The position numbers and the translations under genes were made by a program. From Candidatus Helarchaeota ASGARD archaeon Hel_GB_B (lineage in GTDB: Archaea > Asgardarchaeota > Lokiarchaeia > Helarchaeales > HEL-GB-B), in contig SUPR01000136.1 in the NCBI GenBank assembly GCA_005191425.1, positions 1-7,209 of the forward strand: a DNA stretch of 7,209 bases. The letters are read 5' to 3'. Within the stretch, counting starts at the first letter, position 1, and every line of letters begins with the position of its first letter. Under the pieces are notes generated by a model, which had not been told where the DNA came from, made no database searches, and worked only from the letters and a program-made list of their open reading frames with translations. Positions 1 to 7,202 of the stretch are shown in pieces.

Positions 1-1020
1 ATTTTCTGGCTCTTCTATCAAAATAATTCCATTCTTATTTAATATTAATAACGCCAAGATTAACATTTGAGATATAAATTCGTCCCCAAATGATTTTACA
101 TGTACCATTTCTGGATGATTTCTTGTATGCAAATATATTTCACCCTCCGAAGTAATGATATTTTCTATGTAATCATAATTTCTCTTTAACATTGCTAAAT
201 AATCATTAAAATTATTTTTATTTTTTATTATTTTTTTTAATAGTTACTTTAATTTAAAATATGAAATTTCTCCTAAATATTCTATTTCATTTATTTTTTT
301 ATCCGTACCAGTCTTTTTACTGTCTCTAAATGGAATTTTTATTATATCCTTAATTTTTAGAATGCTTTTTAGATATATCTCTTTCATCTCTAAATTATCC
401 TCCACATATCTCTTAATATCATTAATGGAATTCTTTATATTTCTACCACCGCCTAAAAACGCATAATTTTTTATTCCACTTATCTCATTTTTATATGCTA
501 TATAAATCGAAAATTTTTCTAATAACTCCTCTTTTAACATTTCTATTTTTTTATCAATATTTTCCATTATAATTTTGTTATCTGTTTTTATTTTTTTACT
601 TATAAAATTTCTAAGTTCTAACTTAATCTCATTTATAAACAGATTTTTGAATTTCTCTAATATATATGATAACTCTAAACTTCCGACTCTACTTGAAAAT
701 TCTTCCAAACTTTTTGATATAAATAATTCTGATTTTAATCTACCGCCTCTTATACTTATTCTGCAATTATTACTATCATAATTTATAATACTTGCCAGCT
801 CATTAAAGCCACCTCTATTTTTTATTATTTCTTCTAATATACTACCTTTTTTCATCCCATTCCAACAATTCTCTCCATTTATTCCCAATATTAATGACTA
901 TAATATTGAAGATTTCCCCGTATTATTCCGTCCAACAAATATTGTTATTGGTTTCACTTCTTTAATCTCGAATTTGTCTATACACCGATATTTCTCTATT
1001 CTTATTTCTTGTATTTTCAT
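1..1020 (-). pseudogene. ABC-class P-loop ATPase (AAA_15/AAA_21-like, OLD/AbiEii/SMC-like family), interrupted by two in-frame stops; 3' end runs off the window
   Basis: Manual translation from ATG at 1020 gives MKIQEIRIEKYRCIDKFEIKEVKPITIFVGRNNTGKSSIL*SLILGINGENC..., with Walker A GRNNTGKS and TAG at 900-898. The same frame continues through the 244..888 ORF to ...YFKLK* (TAA at 246-244), then LLKKIIKNKNNFNDYLAMLKRNYDYIENIITSEGEIYLHTRNHPEMVHVKSFGDEFISQMLILALLILNKNGIILIEEPEN to base 1. This last piece has a signature-like SFGD and Walker B/D-loop IILIEEPEN. There is no frameshift anywhere. Confidence 0.88.
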
Positions 1021-1727: not shown

Positions 1728-2261
1728 TTAAAATTTATGTGTAATTTTTTCATTTATAATTTTTTCTGCTTCAAGTGCTCTAATTATTTTTTGAATTTCA
1801 ATTACAGCTTGTGGATAAACCTTCATATATGGAGTTAATCCAGTAAATTGTTCCTCTCTTGTCGTTAAAGTAGGGAGACCTCGCGGTCCAAAATACATTG
1901 TTTCGTTAGTTTTTTGTAGTCCATCTAAATAATTTTTAAGAAATTCAATTTGTTCATCAATTGAGTCCATTTTTGAGATTATTCTTTTAATATTTTCAAG
2001 GTCAAAACCTGGGACTCTTTCACATTTTTTACCGCCTTTTAAGAAACGCAATGCTCGATTTTTGTATAAACATTCGCTATGATATGTTTTAAAGGAGTCG
2101 ACCAGTGCAGATTCAATTCTTTTATTTAATTCTTCGTCAAAATCAAGGCCATTTTCTTCGCATATTTCTTTAAATAATTCAAGATATTTTTTATTAATTT
2201 TTATCTTCAATGCTTCGATTTTTGAATTTTTATCATCATAAATTTCTTCTGAAACTGTCAT
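1728..2261 (-). CDS. Hypothetical protein (177 aa) with a ribbon-helix-helix (CopG/RelB-like) N-terminal region
   Basis: The ORF track gives 1728..2270 from GTG. However, AGGTGA (an archaeal SD-like motif) overlaps that GTG and sits 5 nt before the ATG at 2261, which favours 2261. The segment ALKIKINKKYLELFKEICEENGLDFDEELNKRIESAL has the alternating beta-strand, helix, G-turn, helix pattern of RHH proteins. The C-terminal ~120 aa are unrecognised. Confidence 0.7.
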   Translation of the reverse strand: MTVSEEIYDDKNSKIEALKIKINKKYLELFKEICEENGLDFDEELNKRIESALVDSFKTYHSECLYKNRALRFLKGGKKCERVPGFDLENIKRIISKMDSIDEQIEFLKNYLDGLQKTNETMYFGPRGLPTLTTREEQFTGLTPYMKVYPQAVIEIQKIIRALEAEKIINEKITHKF

Positions 2262-2348
2262 AAATTTCACCTACAAATGAGTTTATTATTCTGATTAAAT
2301 TAAAATCATTAAAGGATTTAAACAATTTGTCTTCACCAACAATACTTA

Positions 2349-2582: not shown

Positions 2583-5117
2583 ATGATAAAAAATATGGAT
2601 ATATATTCGATATTATCTCATCCATTGAGAAGAAAAATTCTATATATTTTGGATAAAGAAGGTTATCTACAATATACTGAATTAATGGAAAGATTAGGAT
2701 TAGAAACAACAGGTCAATTAAATTTTCATTTAAAAAAATTAGGAACGCTTATTAATAAAGACAATAAATCTTATTTTCTCACGAAAGAAGGAAAAATGAT
2801 AGTAAAACTAATGAATTTAAATGAGATGCTAATATCTGGAGAAGATATTGAATATTTAAATCCCAAATTTACCGAAATGAATAGGATTGGCGTGATAATT
2901 TGTAGCTGCAATACGCAAGTTGAAGAGCTTATTGATATTAAAGCCTTAAAAAATTATCTAACTAAAATAAAAAATGTAATTTCAGTAAGAATTTTTGATA
3001 CATTATGTCAAGAGAAAAATTTACTCATGATAACAAACTGGGTAAAAGATAATTTTATTAATAAAATAGTGATAGCCGCATGTTCACCAAGGTCCCATCT
3101 ACATGCTTTTGAACGAATTTTTGAGAGTATAGATAAATATAATATAGAAATTGCTAATATAAGAGAACAGTGTTGTTGGGTACATAAAGGTAATTCTAAA
3201 CAGGCGCTTAAAAAAGCTCAACTTTTAATAGAAGCTGCGATTGAAAGAATATCCTTACAAACAAAATTAAATCTTAAAAAAGTTGAATTAATTAGAAGCG
3301 TAGCGATTTTAGGCGGCGGAATTGCAGGAATGACATTGGCATTAAACCTTGCAAGAGCCGGAATTAAAGTTTATTTAATAGAGAAAGCACCTACTTTAGG
3401 AGGAAAAGTAGCGCGTTGGGAACATATTTATGGTGTAGAAGATTGTTCTATCTGCTTTTTATCCGAATTAATAAGAGAATTAGCTAAAAATCCAAATATT
3501 GAAATTTTTACTAATACGACAATTGAACGAGTATCTGGCGAATTTGGAAATTTTACACTTGAGTTATTAAAAAAGCCTCGTTTTGTTGATGAAAAGCGCT
3601 GCACTGGATGTAAACAATGTATTGAAATATGTCCTATTGAAAAAAAAGACCAATATGAGTTTGGACTTAAAAATAGAAAGTTAATTTATATTCCATTTAT
3701 CCATTCATATCCTTATGCAGCTGTTATTGATGAAGAAGATATAATTAATTGTATTCATTGTAGGACATGCGAGAATATTTGTGTTAATAAAGCAATAAAT
3801 CTAAACCAGCAACCTGAAAAACTCCAAATTAAAGTCGGGATTAAAGTTATTGCAATAGGAGCAGATCTCTATACAAATTTAAAAGAATACCATTATGACC
3901 CTAAAAGCGATATAATTACGTCTGCAGAATTTGAAAGGATATTAGCGAGTGATGGACCAACTTCAGGTAATCTTATTAGGCTTTCCAATAAAAAGCCTCC
4001 TAAAACTATTTCAATAATTCAAACAGTTTGTAATGAAAATTACATTGGCGAATTTTGCGATTATCTTGCTTTAAAATATTTAGAAACAATAAAAATAAGA
4101 TGCCCTGAATGCAAGGTTAATATTTTTTATGAAATAAACAAGAGAAAAAATAAATTCTTATTAGACCCCATGGATAAAAGAGTACATTATGTAAAAAAGA
4201 TTGAAATTTTAAAAAGTGGAAATAAAAAATTCGTTATTACTGACGAGAATAAATATGAAAGCGATTTAATTATATTAAATATTAATTTAATTCCTAATAA
4301 AGACTTACCCAATCTTAGAAAAACTTTTGATTTTACTGTAAATGAAAATGGGTTTATGAGCAAAGAAACTTTGGCATCAGGAATTTATGGGATTGGAACA
4401 ATAATGGGACCTTTAAGTTATCAAAGTACGGTCTCTCAAGCTAATAAATTAGCAATTGAAATTATTTCGTTATTATCAAAGGATTATGTAATAGCTGAAC
4501 CCAGCGGAATTGAAATTAATGAAGATAAATGTGGTTATTGTGGGCTATGTACATTATCATGTCATTACAATGCAATTTCTATTGAAGAAAACCGAATAAA
4601 TGTTGATAGATTCAAATGTAAAGGTTGCGGGACATGTGTTAGTATTTGTCCCACTGGCGCTATTAAAATGAATATTGATATGAATGAGAAAATTCTTAAA
4701 ACAATTGAAGTTTATTCAAAATATCCTGAAAAACCAAAAATTATTGCGTTTTGTTGTCAATCATGTGGTTATGCAGCAGCAGATGAAGCAGGACTTAAAA
4801 AAATAGCATATACCCCCAATATATTTATCGTTAAAGTCCCCTGTACTGGTAGAGTTGATACTTTTTTTATTCTAAAATCATTTGAACTAGGATTTGATGG
4901 GGTTATGGTAATTGGATGTAAACCAAATTCTTGTAGATTTATTAATGGGGCGGAAACCATATCTAAAAAGATACAAATGATTAAAGAAGTATTTGGAGAT
5001 AAGATTAAAGATCATTTAATTCACAAATCTTTAAATGCAGTCGAAGGGAATATCTTTGCTAAAACTGTAAACCAGTTTTATGAAAAATTAAAGGAGGAAG
5101 AATTAAATGAAGCTTAA
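2583..5117 (+). CDS. hdrA: Fusion protein: winged-helix (ArsR-like) DNA-binding domain + heterodisulfide reductase subunit A-like flavo-iron-sulfur protein + MvhD/FlpD [2Fe-2S] domain
   Basis: 844-aa ORF; the true start may be the ATG at 2595, after SD-like GGATGAT. It contains wHTH ILSHPLRRKIL...GQLNFHLKKL...YFLTKEG; HdrA N-domain RIGVIICSC...AACSPRSH...ANIREQCCWVH; Rossmann GGGIAG; DCSIC; inserted ferredoxin CTGCKQCIEICP/CIHCRTCENIC; EFERIL..GPT; C-terminal ferredoxin CGYCGLCTLSC/CKGCGTCVSICP; and MvhD KIIAFCCQSCGYAAAD...VPCTGRVD...DGVMVIGCKPNSC. Confidence 0.93.
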   Translation: MIKNMDIYSILSHPLRRKILYILDKEGYLQYTELMERLGLETTGQLNFHLKKLGTLINKDNKSYFLTKEGKMIVKLMNLNEMLISGEDIEYLNPKFTEMNRIGVIICSCNTQVEELIDIKALKNYLTKIKNVISVRIFDTLCQEKNLLMITNWVKDNFINKIVIAACSPRSHLHAFERIFESIDKYNIEIANIREQCCWVHKGNSKQALKKAQLLIEAAIERISLQTKLNLKKVELIRSVAILGGGIAGMTLALNLARAGIKVYLIEKAPTLGGKVARWEHIYGVEDCSICFLSELIRELAKNPNIEIFTNTTIERVSGEFGNFTLELLKKPRFVDEKRCTGCKQCIEICPIEKKDQYEFGLKNRKLIYIPFIHSYPYAAVIDEEDIINCIHCRTCENICVNKAINLNQQPEKLQIKVGIKVIAIGADLYTNLKEYHYDPKSDIITSAEFERILASDGPTSGNLIRLSNKKPPKTISIIQTVCNENYIGEFCDYLALKYLETIKIRCPECKVNIFYEINKRKNKFLLDPMDKRVHYVKKIEILKSGNKKFVITDENKYESDLIILNINLIPNKDLPNLRKTFDFTVNENGFMSKETLASGIYGIGTIMGPLSYQSTVSQANKLAIEIISLLSKDYVIAEPSGIEINEDKCGYCGLCTLSCHYNAISIEENRINVDRFKCKGCGTCVSICPTGAIKMNIDMNEKILKTIEVYSKYPEKPKIIAFCCQSCGYAAADEAGLKKIAYTPNIFIVKVPCTGRVDTFFILKSFELGFDGVMVIGCKPNSCRFINGAETISKKIQMIKEVFGDKIKDHLIHKSLNAVEGNIFAKTVNQFYEKLKEEELNEA
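2595..2830 (+). other. Winged helix-turn-helix domain (ArsR/HTH_20-like) of the fusion protein
   Basis: MDIYSILSHPLRRKILYILDKEGYLQYTELMERLGLETTGQLNFHLKKLGTLINKDNKSYFLTKEGK matches the archaeal ArsR-like pattern (LSHPxRRxIL; LxxHLxxL; YxLTxxG). The end boundary is approximate. Confidence 0.85.
2877..4730 (+). other. hdrA: HdrA-like region (N-terminal Fe-S domain, FAD domain, inserted and C-terminal 2x[4Fe-4S] domains)
   Basis: It begins MNRIGVIICSC at 2877. GxGxxG is at 3312-3329, and CxxCxxCxxxC motifs start at 3600, 3750, 4530 and 4617. Confidence 0.9.
4731..5117 (+). other. mvhD: MvhD/FlpD ([2Fe-2S], methyl-viologen-reducing hydrogenase delta) domain
   Basis: KPKIIAFCCQSCGYAAADEAG, PCTGRVD, DGVMVIGC-x4-C and NAVEGNIFAKTVNQF match the MvhD consensus with the Cys ligands intact. 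Confidence 0.92.
5092..5097 (+). promoter_or_regulatory. Shine-Dalgarno site for the hydrogenase small subunit
   Basis: AGGAGG lies 9 nt upstream of the ATG at 5107. The genes overlap by 11 nt (5107-5117), consistent with translational coupling. Confidence 0.7.
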
Positions 5118-5853
5118 ATTTTCAATTATTTCTTTAACTTCATGCTCTGGTTGCATTAGCGCATTAATATCATTAGATATTTTTGAGGATTTCTTAGAAA
5201 AAGTTGATTTAGTCTATTTTCCATTTATAATGGACGAAAAACGAATCGAAGAGTGTGATGTATTTTTAATAGAAGGGTGTGTTATTGACGATGAACAAAT
5301 TAAATTATTAAAACAAATAAGAAGAAAAGCAAGAAAAGTGGTTGCATTTGGGACATGCGCAGCATTTGGAGGAATATTAAATTTATCAGAAGATATAAAT
5401 GGAGAACCAATTTCTAATTATATTGAAATTGATGGAATAATCCCGGGCTGCCCACCTCCTTTAAAAATATTGGGCAATTCACTTATTAATTTATTAGAAA
5501 ATAAGAAAATTGTACTTCCAGAAAAGAATTTATGTTATGACTGTCCTCTTAAGGAAAATATTCAGAAAAATTTTGAAATTTCTATTGATGAATTAATGGA
5601 CGAAGGGTATAAGACGGAGAAAGTAATACCTAAATGTTTCTTGGAAAAAAATATACTGTGTTTAGGACCTATTACAAGAGCTGGTTGTGATTGTAGCTGT
5701 ATAAAATTAGGTATACCTTGTGAAGGATGTATGGGGCCACTTAAACAGGATTATACCTCAACAATAATAAATTTTCTTAGTTTACTTAATCTTTCAGATG
5801 ATTTAAGAAAATATAAAAGCATATTTTTTCGTTTTTCAAAACCTAATTTATAA
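5107..5853 (+). CDS. mvhG: Group 3 [NiFe]-hydrogenase small (Fe-S) subunit, MvhG/VhuG-like
   Basis: Proximal cluster ligands CSGC, GTCAAFGG and PGCPP are present, as are the medial/distal ligands CYDC, KCFL, LCLGPITRAGC and CIKLGIPCEGCMGP. There is no Tat leader, so it is cytoplasmic. Confidence 0.9.
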   Translation: MKLKFSIISLTSCSGCISALISLDIFEDFLEKVDLVYFPFIMDEKRIEECDVFLIEGCVIDDEQIKLLKQIRRKARKVVAFGTCAAFGGILNLSEDINGEPISNYIEIDGIIPGCPPPLKILGNSLINLLENKKIVLPEKNLCYDCPLKENIQKNFEISIDELMDEGYKTEKVIPKCFLEKNILCLGPITRAGCDCSCIKLGIPCEGCMGPLKQDYTSTIINFLSLLNLSDDLRKYKSIFFRFSKPNL

Positions 5854-5864
5854 AGTTGATAAAA

Positions 5865-7202
5865 ATGAGTGTTGAAATAGATTTATGTACAAGAGTAGAA
5901 GGACAGGGACGAATATATTATAGCTTCCAGAATGGACAAATTTCAAGTGTAAATTTTGAGGTATATGGATTTAGAAATTTTGAAAATCTTCTAGTAAATA
6001 AAAAATTAATTGAAGTCCCAAGAATTACTTCAAGAATATGCGGATTATGTCATGTTGCTCAAAGTATTGTAAGTTGTAAAGCAATTGAAAACATGTTTAA
6101 TATTACACCTTCAAAATATACAGTCTTATTAAGGCGTCTTTTAATGACTGGCGATCATATTAAGTCTCATATTGCACATATCTTTTTTCAAACATTCTCA
6201 GACCTTTTATATATATTACGAGAGGAGAAAAAAAATATTGCCCCAAATAAAATAATCAAATATGACCCAGAAATAACATCACATGCTTTCAATTTAATTA
6301 AATATAGTTCAGCCATTGTAAATATCCTTGGTGGTAGGTTCATACACCCTATCACGCCTGCAATTGGCGGCTTTTATTATACACCATCTAAAAGGAACAT
6401 AGAATCACTTAAAAAATATTTTGCAGAATCATTTAACAGCTTGAAAATAATAATAATAAAATTTATAGATTTATTCCATAAAATCTCACCACCTGATGAA
6501 TTCTCATTTGGAAATCCTGTTTTTATGGGGTTAAACAATGACTCTTATTTTGATATTTATGAAGGTATAATAAGAATTAAAGATAATGATGGGATATTAT
6601 CTTATTTTGATGTAAATAAATATACCGACTATTTAAAAAGAGAAGACAGGGCAGAAATATATATCAATTTTAATGGACAAAAAGAATTATTTGTTGGCCC
6701 AATTGGTCGGTATAACATTGTAGAAAATTATGGAAATGGTATTGTAGATAACTATTTAGATTATTTTAATAAAACTTGGAAATCCAGTTTGCTTTTCTCT
6801 AATTTTTTAGCTTTATTCGAATTATTGATTTTAATCGATCAAGGAATATCCATCTTAAATGATAAAAAATTAACTAGACCTGAACCGACTAATTCAACGA
6901 ACATTATAAAAAAGAGAGAAGGTATTGGCGTTTTGGAAGCTCCAAGAGGGCTTTTAATACATGATTATAAAGTAAATGAAAATAAAAACATTTTAGACAA
7001 AGCTAGGCTTTTTATCCCCACGGAGATGAATATTCCTTTAATAAATAAAATACTCACCCGATATTGTAAGAATTTTTACTCTACAACTCAAGATTTAGAT
7101 AGAATGAAATATAATGCACAAATTATATTGAGAAGTTTTGATCCTTGTATATCTTGTGCAACACATTTTGTTAATAAAATTGATTGTAAAAGATGTGAAT
7201 AA
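5865..7202 (+). CDS. mvhA: Group 3 [NiFe]-hydrogenase large (catalytic) subunit, MvhA-like
   Basis: It has TRVEG, L1 RICGLC (6033-6050), GGRFIHP, VGPIGRYN, EAPRGLLIHDY, PTEMN and L2 RSFDPCISCATH, with all four Ni/Fe Cys ligands. The ATG at 5865 (after SD-like AAGTTGAT) is preferred over the TTG at 5856. Confidence 0.92.
   Translation: MSVEIDLCTRVEGQGRIYYSFQNGQISSVNFEVYGFRNFENLLVNKKLIEVPRITSRICGLCHVAQSIVSCKAIENMFNITPSKYTVLLRRLLMTGDHIKSHIAHIFFQTFSDLLYILREEKKNIAPNKIIKYDPEITSHAFNLIKYSSAIVNILGGRFIHPITPAIGGFYYTPSKRNIESLKKYFAESFNSLKIIIIKFIDLFHKISPPDEFSFGNPVFMGLNNDSYFDIYEGIIRIKDNDGILSYFDVNKYTDYLKREDRAEIYINFNGQKELFVGPIGRYNIVENYGNGIVDNYLDYFNKTWKSSLLFSNFLALFELLILIDQGISILNDKKLTRPEPTNSTNIIKKREGIGVLEAPRGLLIHDYKVNENKNILDKARLFIPTEMNIPLINKILTRYCKNFYSTTQDLDRMKYNAQIILRSFDPCISCATHFVNKIDCKRCE

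Follow-up and report, generated by a model that had tools for sequence, protein, structure and literature searches.

A winged-helix HdrA-MvhD flavoprotein in an Asgard archaeal [NiFe]-hydrogenase gene cluster faces a conserved palindrome: a candidate self-regulating redox enzyme

PutA of enterobacteria is a flavoenzyme with an N-terminal DNA-binding domain of the ribbon-helix-helix type; the redox state of its flavin governs whether it represses its own divergent operon, and it switches to the membrane. Here we describe a hydrogenase-linked flavoprotein of an Asgard archaeon for which a comparable arrangement is suggested. It is encoded on a 7209-bp stretch of DNA from the Candidatus Helarchaeota archaeon Hel_GB_B (contig SUPR01000136.1), referred to below as the window, which is a complete contig (C43) of a 3.54-Mb genome with a completeness of 93.7% and a G+C content of about 25%. 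Three genes are involved: P0001, in which a winged helix-turn-helix (wHTH) domain, HdrA and MvhD are joined; P0002, an MvhG-like small subunit; and P0003, a divergent [NiFe]-hydrogenase large subunit. As in PutA-type trigger enzymes, the enzyme and the putative DNA-binding part lie on one polypeptide, with a candidate operator before their own operon. Unlike PutA, the domain is an ArsR-type wHTH attached to a multi-subunit hydrogenase, and the switch is here only a proposal.

The subunit families and the order of the cofactors are those of the MvhAGD-HdrABC complex (PDB 5ODC, 8RVU and 9SW2), which also provided the best PDB matches. The locus differs from that complex in that no HdrBC is linked to it, cluster HA4 of HdrA is lost, MvhD is fused to HdrA, a wHTH is added at the N terminus, the large-subunit motif L1 has Gln in place of His, and most copies have no C-terminal tail. 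HdrA2 of Methanosarcina acetivorans (NF040770), likewise an HdrA-MvhD fusion, was the best NCBIfam match of P0001 (595 bits, residues 101-838), a score far under the 1100-bit cut-off of that family; unlike P0001, HdrA2 is partnered by HdrB2C2 and has neither a wHTH nor a dedicated hydrogenase (PMC6019823). The regulatory hydrogenases HoxBC/HupUV (group 2b, with kinase HoxJ/HupT) have in common with the present complex the L1 Gln, a large subunit that in most copies ends at the L2 His and a three-cluster small subunit, the reporting of H2 to transcription being a likeness in the proposed role only. They belong to an unrelated lineage, as the clade described here falls with group 3; no histidine kinase or response regulator accompanies the present genes, the output domain would reside on the flavoprotein subunit, and the Gln is not universal in wHTH-linked copies. 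Finally, YodB/QsrR and repressors of the ArsR/SmtB family (CadC, HlyU, SqrR) resemble the wHTH in their fold, in the helix 1/helix 5 interface of its modelled dimer and in a palindrome as the proposed target, but are free-standing and sense by means of their own Cys or metal, whereas here the attached enzyme would do the sensing.

The best reading of the locus is that of a redox enzyme which also regulates its own operon, i.e., a trigger enzyme, and we rate the chances that it is correct as about even. The complex would be a cytosolic [NiFe]-hydrogenase/flavoprotein assembly without HdrBC, composed of the MvhA-like, MvhG-like and wHTH-HdrA-MvhD subunits. Electrons from H2 would pass through the Ni-Fe site, the three [4Fe-4S] clusters of the small subunit, the [2Fe-2S] cluster of MvhD and the Cys288/Cys291 pair to flavin adenine dinucleotide (FAD), and from there, by way of the N-terminal shuttle cluster and then the inserted ferredoxin domain, to a carrier of the ferredoxin type as the probable physiological acceptor; catalysis might also follow this path in reverse. 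The branch that serves heterodisulfide reduction in methanogens (HA4 to HdrC to HdrB) would have been removed. The wHTH is tethered to the N-terminal HdrA domain by a linker of approximately 15 residues. In the methanogen enzyme that domain belongs to an arm which rotates between states during turnover (PMC13580544), and by analogy the placement of the wHTH on a mobile-arm domain offers a plausible route by which the redox state could alter DNA binding. The two wHTH domains of an HdrA dimer would form a pair that binds the palindrome before the operon, and operator occupancy would track the redox or conformational state of the enzyme, such that the operon and its divergent neighbour would be set by H2 or redox conditions without a kinase.

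A note made earlier from the letters of the window alone had described three tightly coupled genes built from Mvh-Hdr parts, which encode an electron path from H2 that ends in a DNA-binding domain. When the coordinates were re-read (Table 1), the 11-nucleotide (nt) overlap between P0001 and P0002 and the 11-nt gap between P0002 and P0003 were borne out, and the make-up was confirmed by Pfam and NCBIfam domains together with the aligned cofactor cysteines. In P0001, residues 6-76 correspond to a DUF7347 wHTH, residues 101-838 to an HdrA2-like body (E 2e-178) and residues 720-838 to FlpD/MvhD. Translation of P0001 probably begins at the ATG at 2595, because the orthologs begin with MDIY and a Shine-Dalgarno-like AGGA is present.

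Table 1. Positions of the features discussed, in window coordinates.
Feature	Positions	Strand	Basis or remark
Divergent 180-amino-acid open reading frame	1728-2270	-	Familyless; shares the operator intergenic region; conserved only in the Helarchaeota lineage
Candidate operator TTGATAA-N6-TTATCAA	2351-2370	.	Sole match of at least 13/14 in the window
Half-site TTGTCAA	2441-2447	+	Kept in all three Helarchaeota-lineage upstream regions
Further half-site TTATCAA	2498-2504		Upstream comparison
wHTH-HdrA-MvhD gene (P0001)	2583-5117	+	844 amino acids; Pfam, NCBIfam, alignments
ArsR-like wHTH (DUF7347), residues 5-85	2595-2837	+	Pfam E 5.7e-12, model, Foldseek
wHTH recognition helix, residues 43-56	2709-2750	+	Within DUF7347
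HdrA body	2883-4682	+	N-terminal cluster Cys, FAD motif, Cys288/Cys291, inserted and C-terminal ferredoxin domains kept
Stretch without the canonical HA4 motif CX12CX3CC	4014-4127	+	Alignment to 8rvu_a
Fused MvhD/FlpD domain with [2Fe-2S] Cys	4734-5096	+	Pfam, alignment, ortholog conservation
MvhG-like small subunit (P0002)	5107-5853	+	Cys pattern fits three [4Fe-4S] clusters
Divergent [NiFe] large subunit (P0003)	5865-7202	+	ATG start at 5865
L1 RICGLCHVAQ (Cys59, Cys62, Gln66)	6033-6062	+	Gln at the canonical His place
L2 DPCISCATH (Cys428, Cys431, His434)	7140-7166	+	Canonical, then an 11-residue tail

The wHTH is a regular part of the flavoprotein: of its best 120 homologs, only three were without PF24038. 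Median ortholog identity was 68% for wHTH residues 5-85, compared to 63% for the HdrA body, 62% for MvhD and 53%, the lowest value, for the linker; the recognition helix, TTGQLNFHLKK, was nearly invariant. In the AlphaFold model of the domain (predicted local distance difference test, pLDDT, 86.7), helices 1-2-3, the recognition helix, a beta wing and helix 5 follow each other in the ArsR order. Foldseek matched this model to YodB, CadC, HlyU, QsrR (including the QsrR-DNA complex), MexR, PagR and NolR at template-modelling (TM) scores of 0.6-0.74, these matches being quinone-, metal- and sulfide-sensing repressors and MarR proteins. The domain that had been taken to bind DNA thus has the fold of DNA-binding repressors. 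A homodimer modelled through helices 1 and 5 scored 0.56 against 0.00 for the best control, with at least 62% contact agreement between runs and a pLDDT of at least 79; among proteins solved as same-chain pairs 20 of 30 reached this mark, and among those solved as single chains one of 23. As ArsR-family dimers have already been solved, this pass may reflect memory or likeness only.

A candidate target of the wHTH was found in cis. Counting of k-mers in 65 upstream regions singled out TTGTCAAA and TTATCAAA, which are arranged as TTGAYAA-N6-TTRTCAA. Twenty-two of the 34 strict copies of this palindrome in 814 kb of loci fall within 350 nt before hdrA, a zone that makes up 2.75% of the sequence. 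When at least 13/14 matching positions were accepted, the palindrome was present before the first operon gene in 56/66 loci, versus 18/166 control regions, the controls being other intergenic regions, some of which lie upstream of neighbouring Hdr genes. In operons led by FrhB the palindrome moves to the region upstream of FrhB, and it tracks the operon regardless of the divergent neighbour. In the complete genomes, scanned with either A or T allowed at the last base of the pattern, two of the three sites (G002) and one of the two distinct sites (G001) were located directly upstream of the operon. The wHTH faces a conserved palindrome in cis, at approximately 215-265 nt from the first start codon, with the half-sites nearer in.

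The window's own genome contains two strict copies, that in the window and one on contig C65 (G000:C65:34294-34313; L099:4295-4314), about 180 nt before a 318-amino-acid radical SAM gene. The C65 copy may be a matter of chance, as about 0.5 copies are expected per genome. Also adjoining the window palindrome, a block of about 30 nt at 2310-2340 (AAAGRATTTAAACAA...CTTCACCAA) is nearly identical in three Helarchaeota-lineage upstream regions; a role as the divergent promoter, or as a second site, is conceivable. Other intergenic palindromes, e.g., that at 2404-2427, were discounted since they are not conserved in relatives and palindromes are frequent in DNA of about 20% G+C.

Several observations weigh against the trigger-enzyme reading. 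At 215-265 nt the operator is remote for the site of an archaeal repressor, unless a long leader is assumed, and in the window it is nearer to the divergent open reading frame (ORF) than to the operon. In BamF, an MvhD-like subunit of class II benzoyl-CoA reductase, a wHTH serves as a protein-protein interface with BamI. The L1 motif has Gln where all energy-converting enzymes carry His, in the manner of the low-activity sensor HoxC (PMC5665086), and among orthologs the large subunit, at about 45% identity, is less conserved than the HdrA subunit, at about 63%; both features fit a sensor better than a busy enzyme. In addition, family f5 yielded no large-subunit ortholog; in its three single-contig genomes, two of which measure 4.4 and 6.0 Mb, the wHTH-HdrA is missing as well, all HdrA homologs there starting at query residue 75-101 with at most 35% identity.

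The remote operator and the BamF precedent would also suit a wHTH that is a structural or docking domain, holding a partner or stabilising the dimer, with the palindrome bound by some other factor. Winged helices are common as protein-protein modules, and in Helarchaeota the divergent 180-amino-acid ORF gave weak ribbon-helix-helix-like leads. As an operator binder this ORF was rejected, as those leads score at chance level and the ORF occurs in three loci only, and no free-standing regulator gene was conserved near the operon in the orthologous loci examined. The recognition helix and the wing are, moreover, the best-conserved part of the domain, its closest folds are all DNA-binding repressors, and the modelled dimer uses the canonical ArsR interface and leaves the recognition helices free. 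Together with a palindrome that follows the operon whatever its divergent neighbour, these points make a purely structural role quite improbable in our judgement.

With regard to the enzyme body, alignment of P0001 to the solved HdrA (8rvu_a) showed that the four Cys of the N-terminal domain, the GGGxAG motif for FAD and both ferredoxin domains are retained, Cys288/Cys291 being the counterpart of Cys202/Cys205 of M. marburgensis. Among 72 orthologs the Cys of HA3, of the 288/291 pair, of HA5/HA6, of HA1/HA2 and of MvhD are 94-100% conserved (97-100% for the HdrA ligands without MvhD), and all cofactor sites are kept except HA4. The loss of an HdrA cluster, previously suspected, is real: the motif CX12CX3CC of the thioredoxin-reductase domain, identified as that of HA4 by a process of elimination based on PMC13580544, is missing relative to 8rvu_a and was found in 0/72 orthologs, whereas HdrA paralogs of the same genome (L002, L007) retain it. 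HA4 carries the high-potential electron from FAD to HdrB (PMC13580544). Its loss fits the absence of hdrBC described below; on sequence grounds, the HdrA cluster from which HdrBC is fed is gone from the clade, and the complex is not a heterodisulfide reductase. Three other Cys of P0001 are specific to the clade (window 3171-3176 and 4110-4112): Cys197, Cys198 and Cys510 are conserved in 99%, 85% and 92% of the 72 orthologs, respectively, and might represent a relocated cluster or a redox-active disulfide.

That no hdrB or hdrC had been seen in the window was in itself uninformative, because only 7 nt of the window, itself a whole contig, remain after mvhA. However, the same genes occur in identical form on a 37.9-kb contig of the same species (L011), and there mvhA is followed after 2 nt by a 317-amino-acid radical SAM gene (L011:14611-15564). 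The concern that hdrBC might lie directly downstream was thereby removed; neither gene ever adjoined the cluster in L011, L013-L016, L116, L118 or the 72 orthologous loci. The product of the radical SAM gene had NifB TIGR01290 as its best NCBIfam match, at 306 bits and thus under the cut-off of 343, and has no NifX-like tail. The same gene comes after mvhA in L013, a second Helarchaeota genome, and likewise in L017 and the Lokiarchaeota locus L014; the NifB-like protein may build or insert an unusual Fe-S cofactor for the complex.

Canonical parts were present elsewhere in the genome, as the earlier note had proposed should be checked: a VhuA-type subunit on contig C128, vhuG-hdrC-hdrB and vhuD on C123, and many hdrA paralogs. 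The gene on C128 (G000:C128; L098:4902-6212) encodes a lone VhuA-type subunit without its C-terminal part (a VhuU-type split), and that on C123 (G000:C123; L097:4468-7220, 8409-8855) a 453-amino-acid VhuG-like protein, with hdrC-hdrB beside it and vhuD nearby. A second large subunit, and a small subunit accompanied by hdrC-hdrB and vhuD, indicate that a separate canonical set of the selenium type exists. In comparisons with solved structures P0003 reached 188 bits to MvhA, and the C128 paralog 436 and 387 bits to Vhu/Mvh. One could accordingly picture an ordinary bifurcating Mvh-Hdr complex that draws its HdrBC from elsewhere in the genome and bears the wHTH as a neutral addition: the genome has about 25 CCG-domain genes, hdrC-hdrB of C123 among them, the nearest solved relatives are MvhA, MvhG and HdrA, and published Asgard annotations name such clusters MvhADG-HdrABC. 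We find this very unlikely, since the HA4 ligands that link FAD to HdrC/HdrB are absent from 72/72 orthologs, the hdrC-hdrB pair of C123 sits by the other small subunit, and the wHTH is more tightly constrained than the enzyme body.

P0002 (Oxidored_q6, VhuG-like) aligns in its Cys pattern with the three clusters of MvhG (5odc_E), and in P0003 (NiFeSe_Hases) the Ni-Fe ligands Cys59, Cys62, Cys428 and Cys431 are present, as they are in 71 orthologs. The suspicion that the motifs of the large subunit are non-canonical was justified for L0 (RVEGQG) and for L1 (Gln66), L2 being canonical. Throughout the 71 orthologs of the genome set L1 reads RxCGxC[HY]xxQ, with Gln in every one in place of the His that the Vhu-type paralogs have, and 68/71 stop exactly at the His of DPCxxCxxH. 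P0003 itself is atypical within the clade, as most orthologs have His in L0, and its 11-residue tail after the L2 His contains a CxxC. HoxC of Cupriavidus necator (pHG1) has RVCGICSVSQ and ends in DPCMVCTVH, the membrane-bound HoxG having His and a 15-residue tail; the L1 Gln is characteristic of regulatory hydrogenases (PMC5665086), and sensors are among the tailless classes of large subunits (PMC7294309).

Among the nearest 149 representatives (at 50% identity), 102 have His, 13 Tyr and five Gln at the L1 position. All five Gln representatives were among the closest matches and were placed by the tree in the wHTH-linked clade. P0124 and P0126, their wHTH linkage verified, keep His. As 19 His-type representatives of group 3 are also tailless, taillessness is not diagnostic. 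A group 3-like clade with Tyr in L1 (CxxCxxxY) was also observed (P0143, P0149, P0163, P0189, P0193, P0194, P0222, P0225, P0234, P0254, P0256, P0265 and P0266). In a FastTree phylogeny of 166 rows, rooted on HoxC/HoxG, the wHTH-linked large subunits form a clade with support of 99 within a 31-row clade with support of 100. The latter is sister (support 85) to a 43-row clade that holds the Asgard VhuA, and the wHTH-linked sequences are not nested therein; they thus stand outside the canonical Vhu/Mvh clade, in a strongly supported clade of their own beside it. The tree places them among group 3-like sequences, a group label that is provisional as the tree has no named HydDB references.

These features bring up the interpretation originally offered for the locus, namely a dedicated, kinase-free H2 sensor, in which a slow hydrogenase would do no more than set the redox state of HdrA-FAD and hence DNA binding by the wHTH, as an archaeal counterpart of the regulatory hydrogenases. 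Much of what it was built on has stood: hdrBC is not adjacent and HA4 is lost, a canonical Vhu-type enzyme occurs separately in this genome and in most others, the large subunits form their own clade and evolve faster than the HdrA subunit, the wHTH has a repressor fold and faces a palindrome, and the universal CxxCxxxQ of the 71 orthologs and their usual end at the L2 His match HoxC. No conserved kinase gene was found near the cluster in L011, L013 and the 72 loci. The dedicated role, by contrast, was not borne out. The operator is almost confined to the region upstream of its own operon, so that a sensor would have hardly anything to regulate other than itself and its neighbour; FAD and the ferredoxin-exit clusters HA5/HA6 are fully conserved; an FrhB gene is co-operonic in 20/72 loci; and about 17 genomes, by our reading of the table, have this large-subunit type alone among the types that the query finds. 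P0124 and P0126 are wHTH-linked yet keep His, tailless subunits are found elsewhere in group 3, the window copy has a tail, and the Gln apparently has no part in the sensing of H2 (PMC5665086). We therefore hold a dedicated sensor to be unlikely. A one-component H2 sensor, in which the Gln of regulatory hydrogenases would have been acquired independently and the flavoprotein subunit would bind DNA with no kinase, second messenger or free regulator, strikes us as doubtful.

As to whether catalysis would be the main task, the features point both ways. The full path to ferredoxin, the co-operonic FrhB, the genomes with this large-subunit type only and the fact that PF00346, which covers group 4 large subunits, had no match in the five genomes tested speak for an enzyme. 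The L1 Gln, the HA4 loss, the faster evolution of the large subunit and the occurrence of a canonical set in most genomes speak for a sensor.

Homologs of P0001 are 57-79% identical to it (60-79% for the best 120, which are about 849 amino acids long); the best 120 come from Helarchaeota, Promethearchaeota/Lokiarchaeota and Thor-, Hod-, Hermod- and Odinarchaeota. Orthologs of the large subunit (E <1e-60) were counted, as read from the table, in about 99/161 genomes of the GTDB class. The surroundings of the operon vary. Downstream, 25/72 loci have an Asgard-specific, familyless protein of 340 amino acids, and other genes take its place elsewhere. Upstream, the 20 loci with FrhB have it in the same direction, and 31 have a divergent, familyless 209-amino-acid protein, which is followed in L058, L027 and L018 by a protein of 243 amino acids or by one of 560 amino acids from the same similarity cluster; in the related loci L014 and L118 the 560-amino-acid neighbour has an Mpt_N domain.

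Two loci show further arrangements. In the FrhB-led loci, as in L020:2279-4195 (- strand), a divergent HdrA of the selenocysteine type, of 160 + 477 amino acids across a TGA, shares the operator-bearing intergenic region. The Lokiarchaeota locus L014 (RDOG01000010) has two wHTH-HdrA-MvhD genes 8 kb apart, one with mvhG, mvhA and the radical SAM gene, the other alone by an aspartyl-tRNA synthetase-like gene and without the upstream palindrome.

H2 exchange lies at the heart of Asgard physiology and of syntrophy models for the origin of eukaryotes. The [NiFe] H2 sensors considered here use histidine kinases, and a DNA-binding hydrogenase subunit, if true, would be a much shorter path. Should the one-component sensor be true, H2 partial pressure would be read at the promoter, telling syntrophic, H2-sensitive Asgards what their partners leave. 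The annotation also needs correction: such clusters are usually counted as MvhADG-HdrABC, yet the clade is without the cluster that connects to HdrBC, and reconstructions of heterodisulfide-coupled bifurcation that rely on them are therefore probably wrong.

The gene cluster itself has been known since 2019, but neither its wHTH nor a regulatory reading was noted then. Seitz 2019 (PMC6478937) shows in Fig. 5, as genes 5-7 of Hel_GB_B NODE_147_length_7209, the same trio under the names HydB/Nqo4-like, Oxidored_q6 and Fe-S disulfide reductase with FlpD, and the window is most probably the contig of that figure. It was labelled a 'possible energy-transferring complex' and transmembrane motifs were claimed; the N-terminal winged helix was not mentioned (PMC6478937). 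The transmembrane calls were set aside as false positives, because the most hydrophobic 19-residue windows, which correspond to a strand of the FAD Rossmann fold, the strand of the proximal-cluster CxxC and one internal helix, all three align with soluble homologs. A literature search yielded no description of the wHTH fusion, DUF7347 or the operator in the searchable literature.

Rfam and tRNA scans of the window found nothing, and a sigma-70/terminator scan was set aside, as bacterial-type signals are not meaningful for an archaeon. No RNA run was listed as holding the window or mvhA alone; the 14 runs in which a portion of it occurs are recorded as DNA and derive from metagenomes of hydrothermal vents and marine sediments. 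The segment at 1001-1500 of the window has 17% G+C and lies within an ORF-free stretch (889-1727). At the left end of the window (1-192 and 244-888, - strand) and in L011:7152-8426, AAA_15/AAA_21/AAA_23 fragments of 128 and 40 amino acids flank a familyless ORF of 214 amino acids; the AAA-fragment ORFs look like the remains of a broken ATPase gene.

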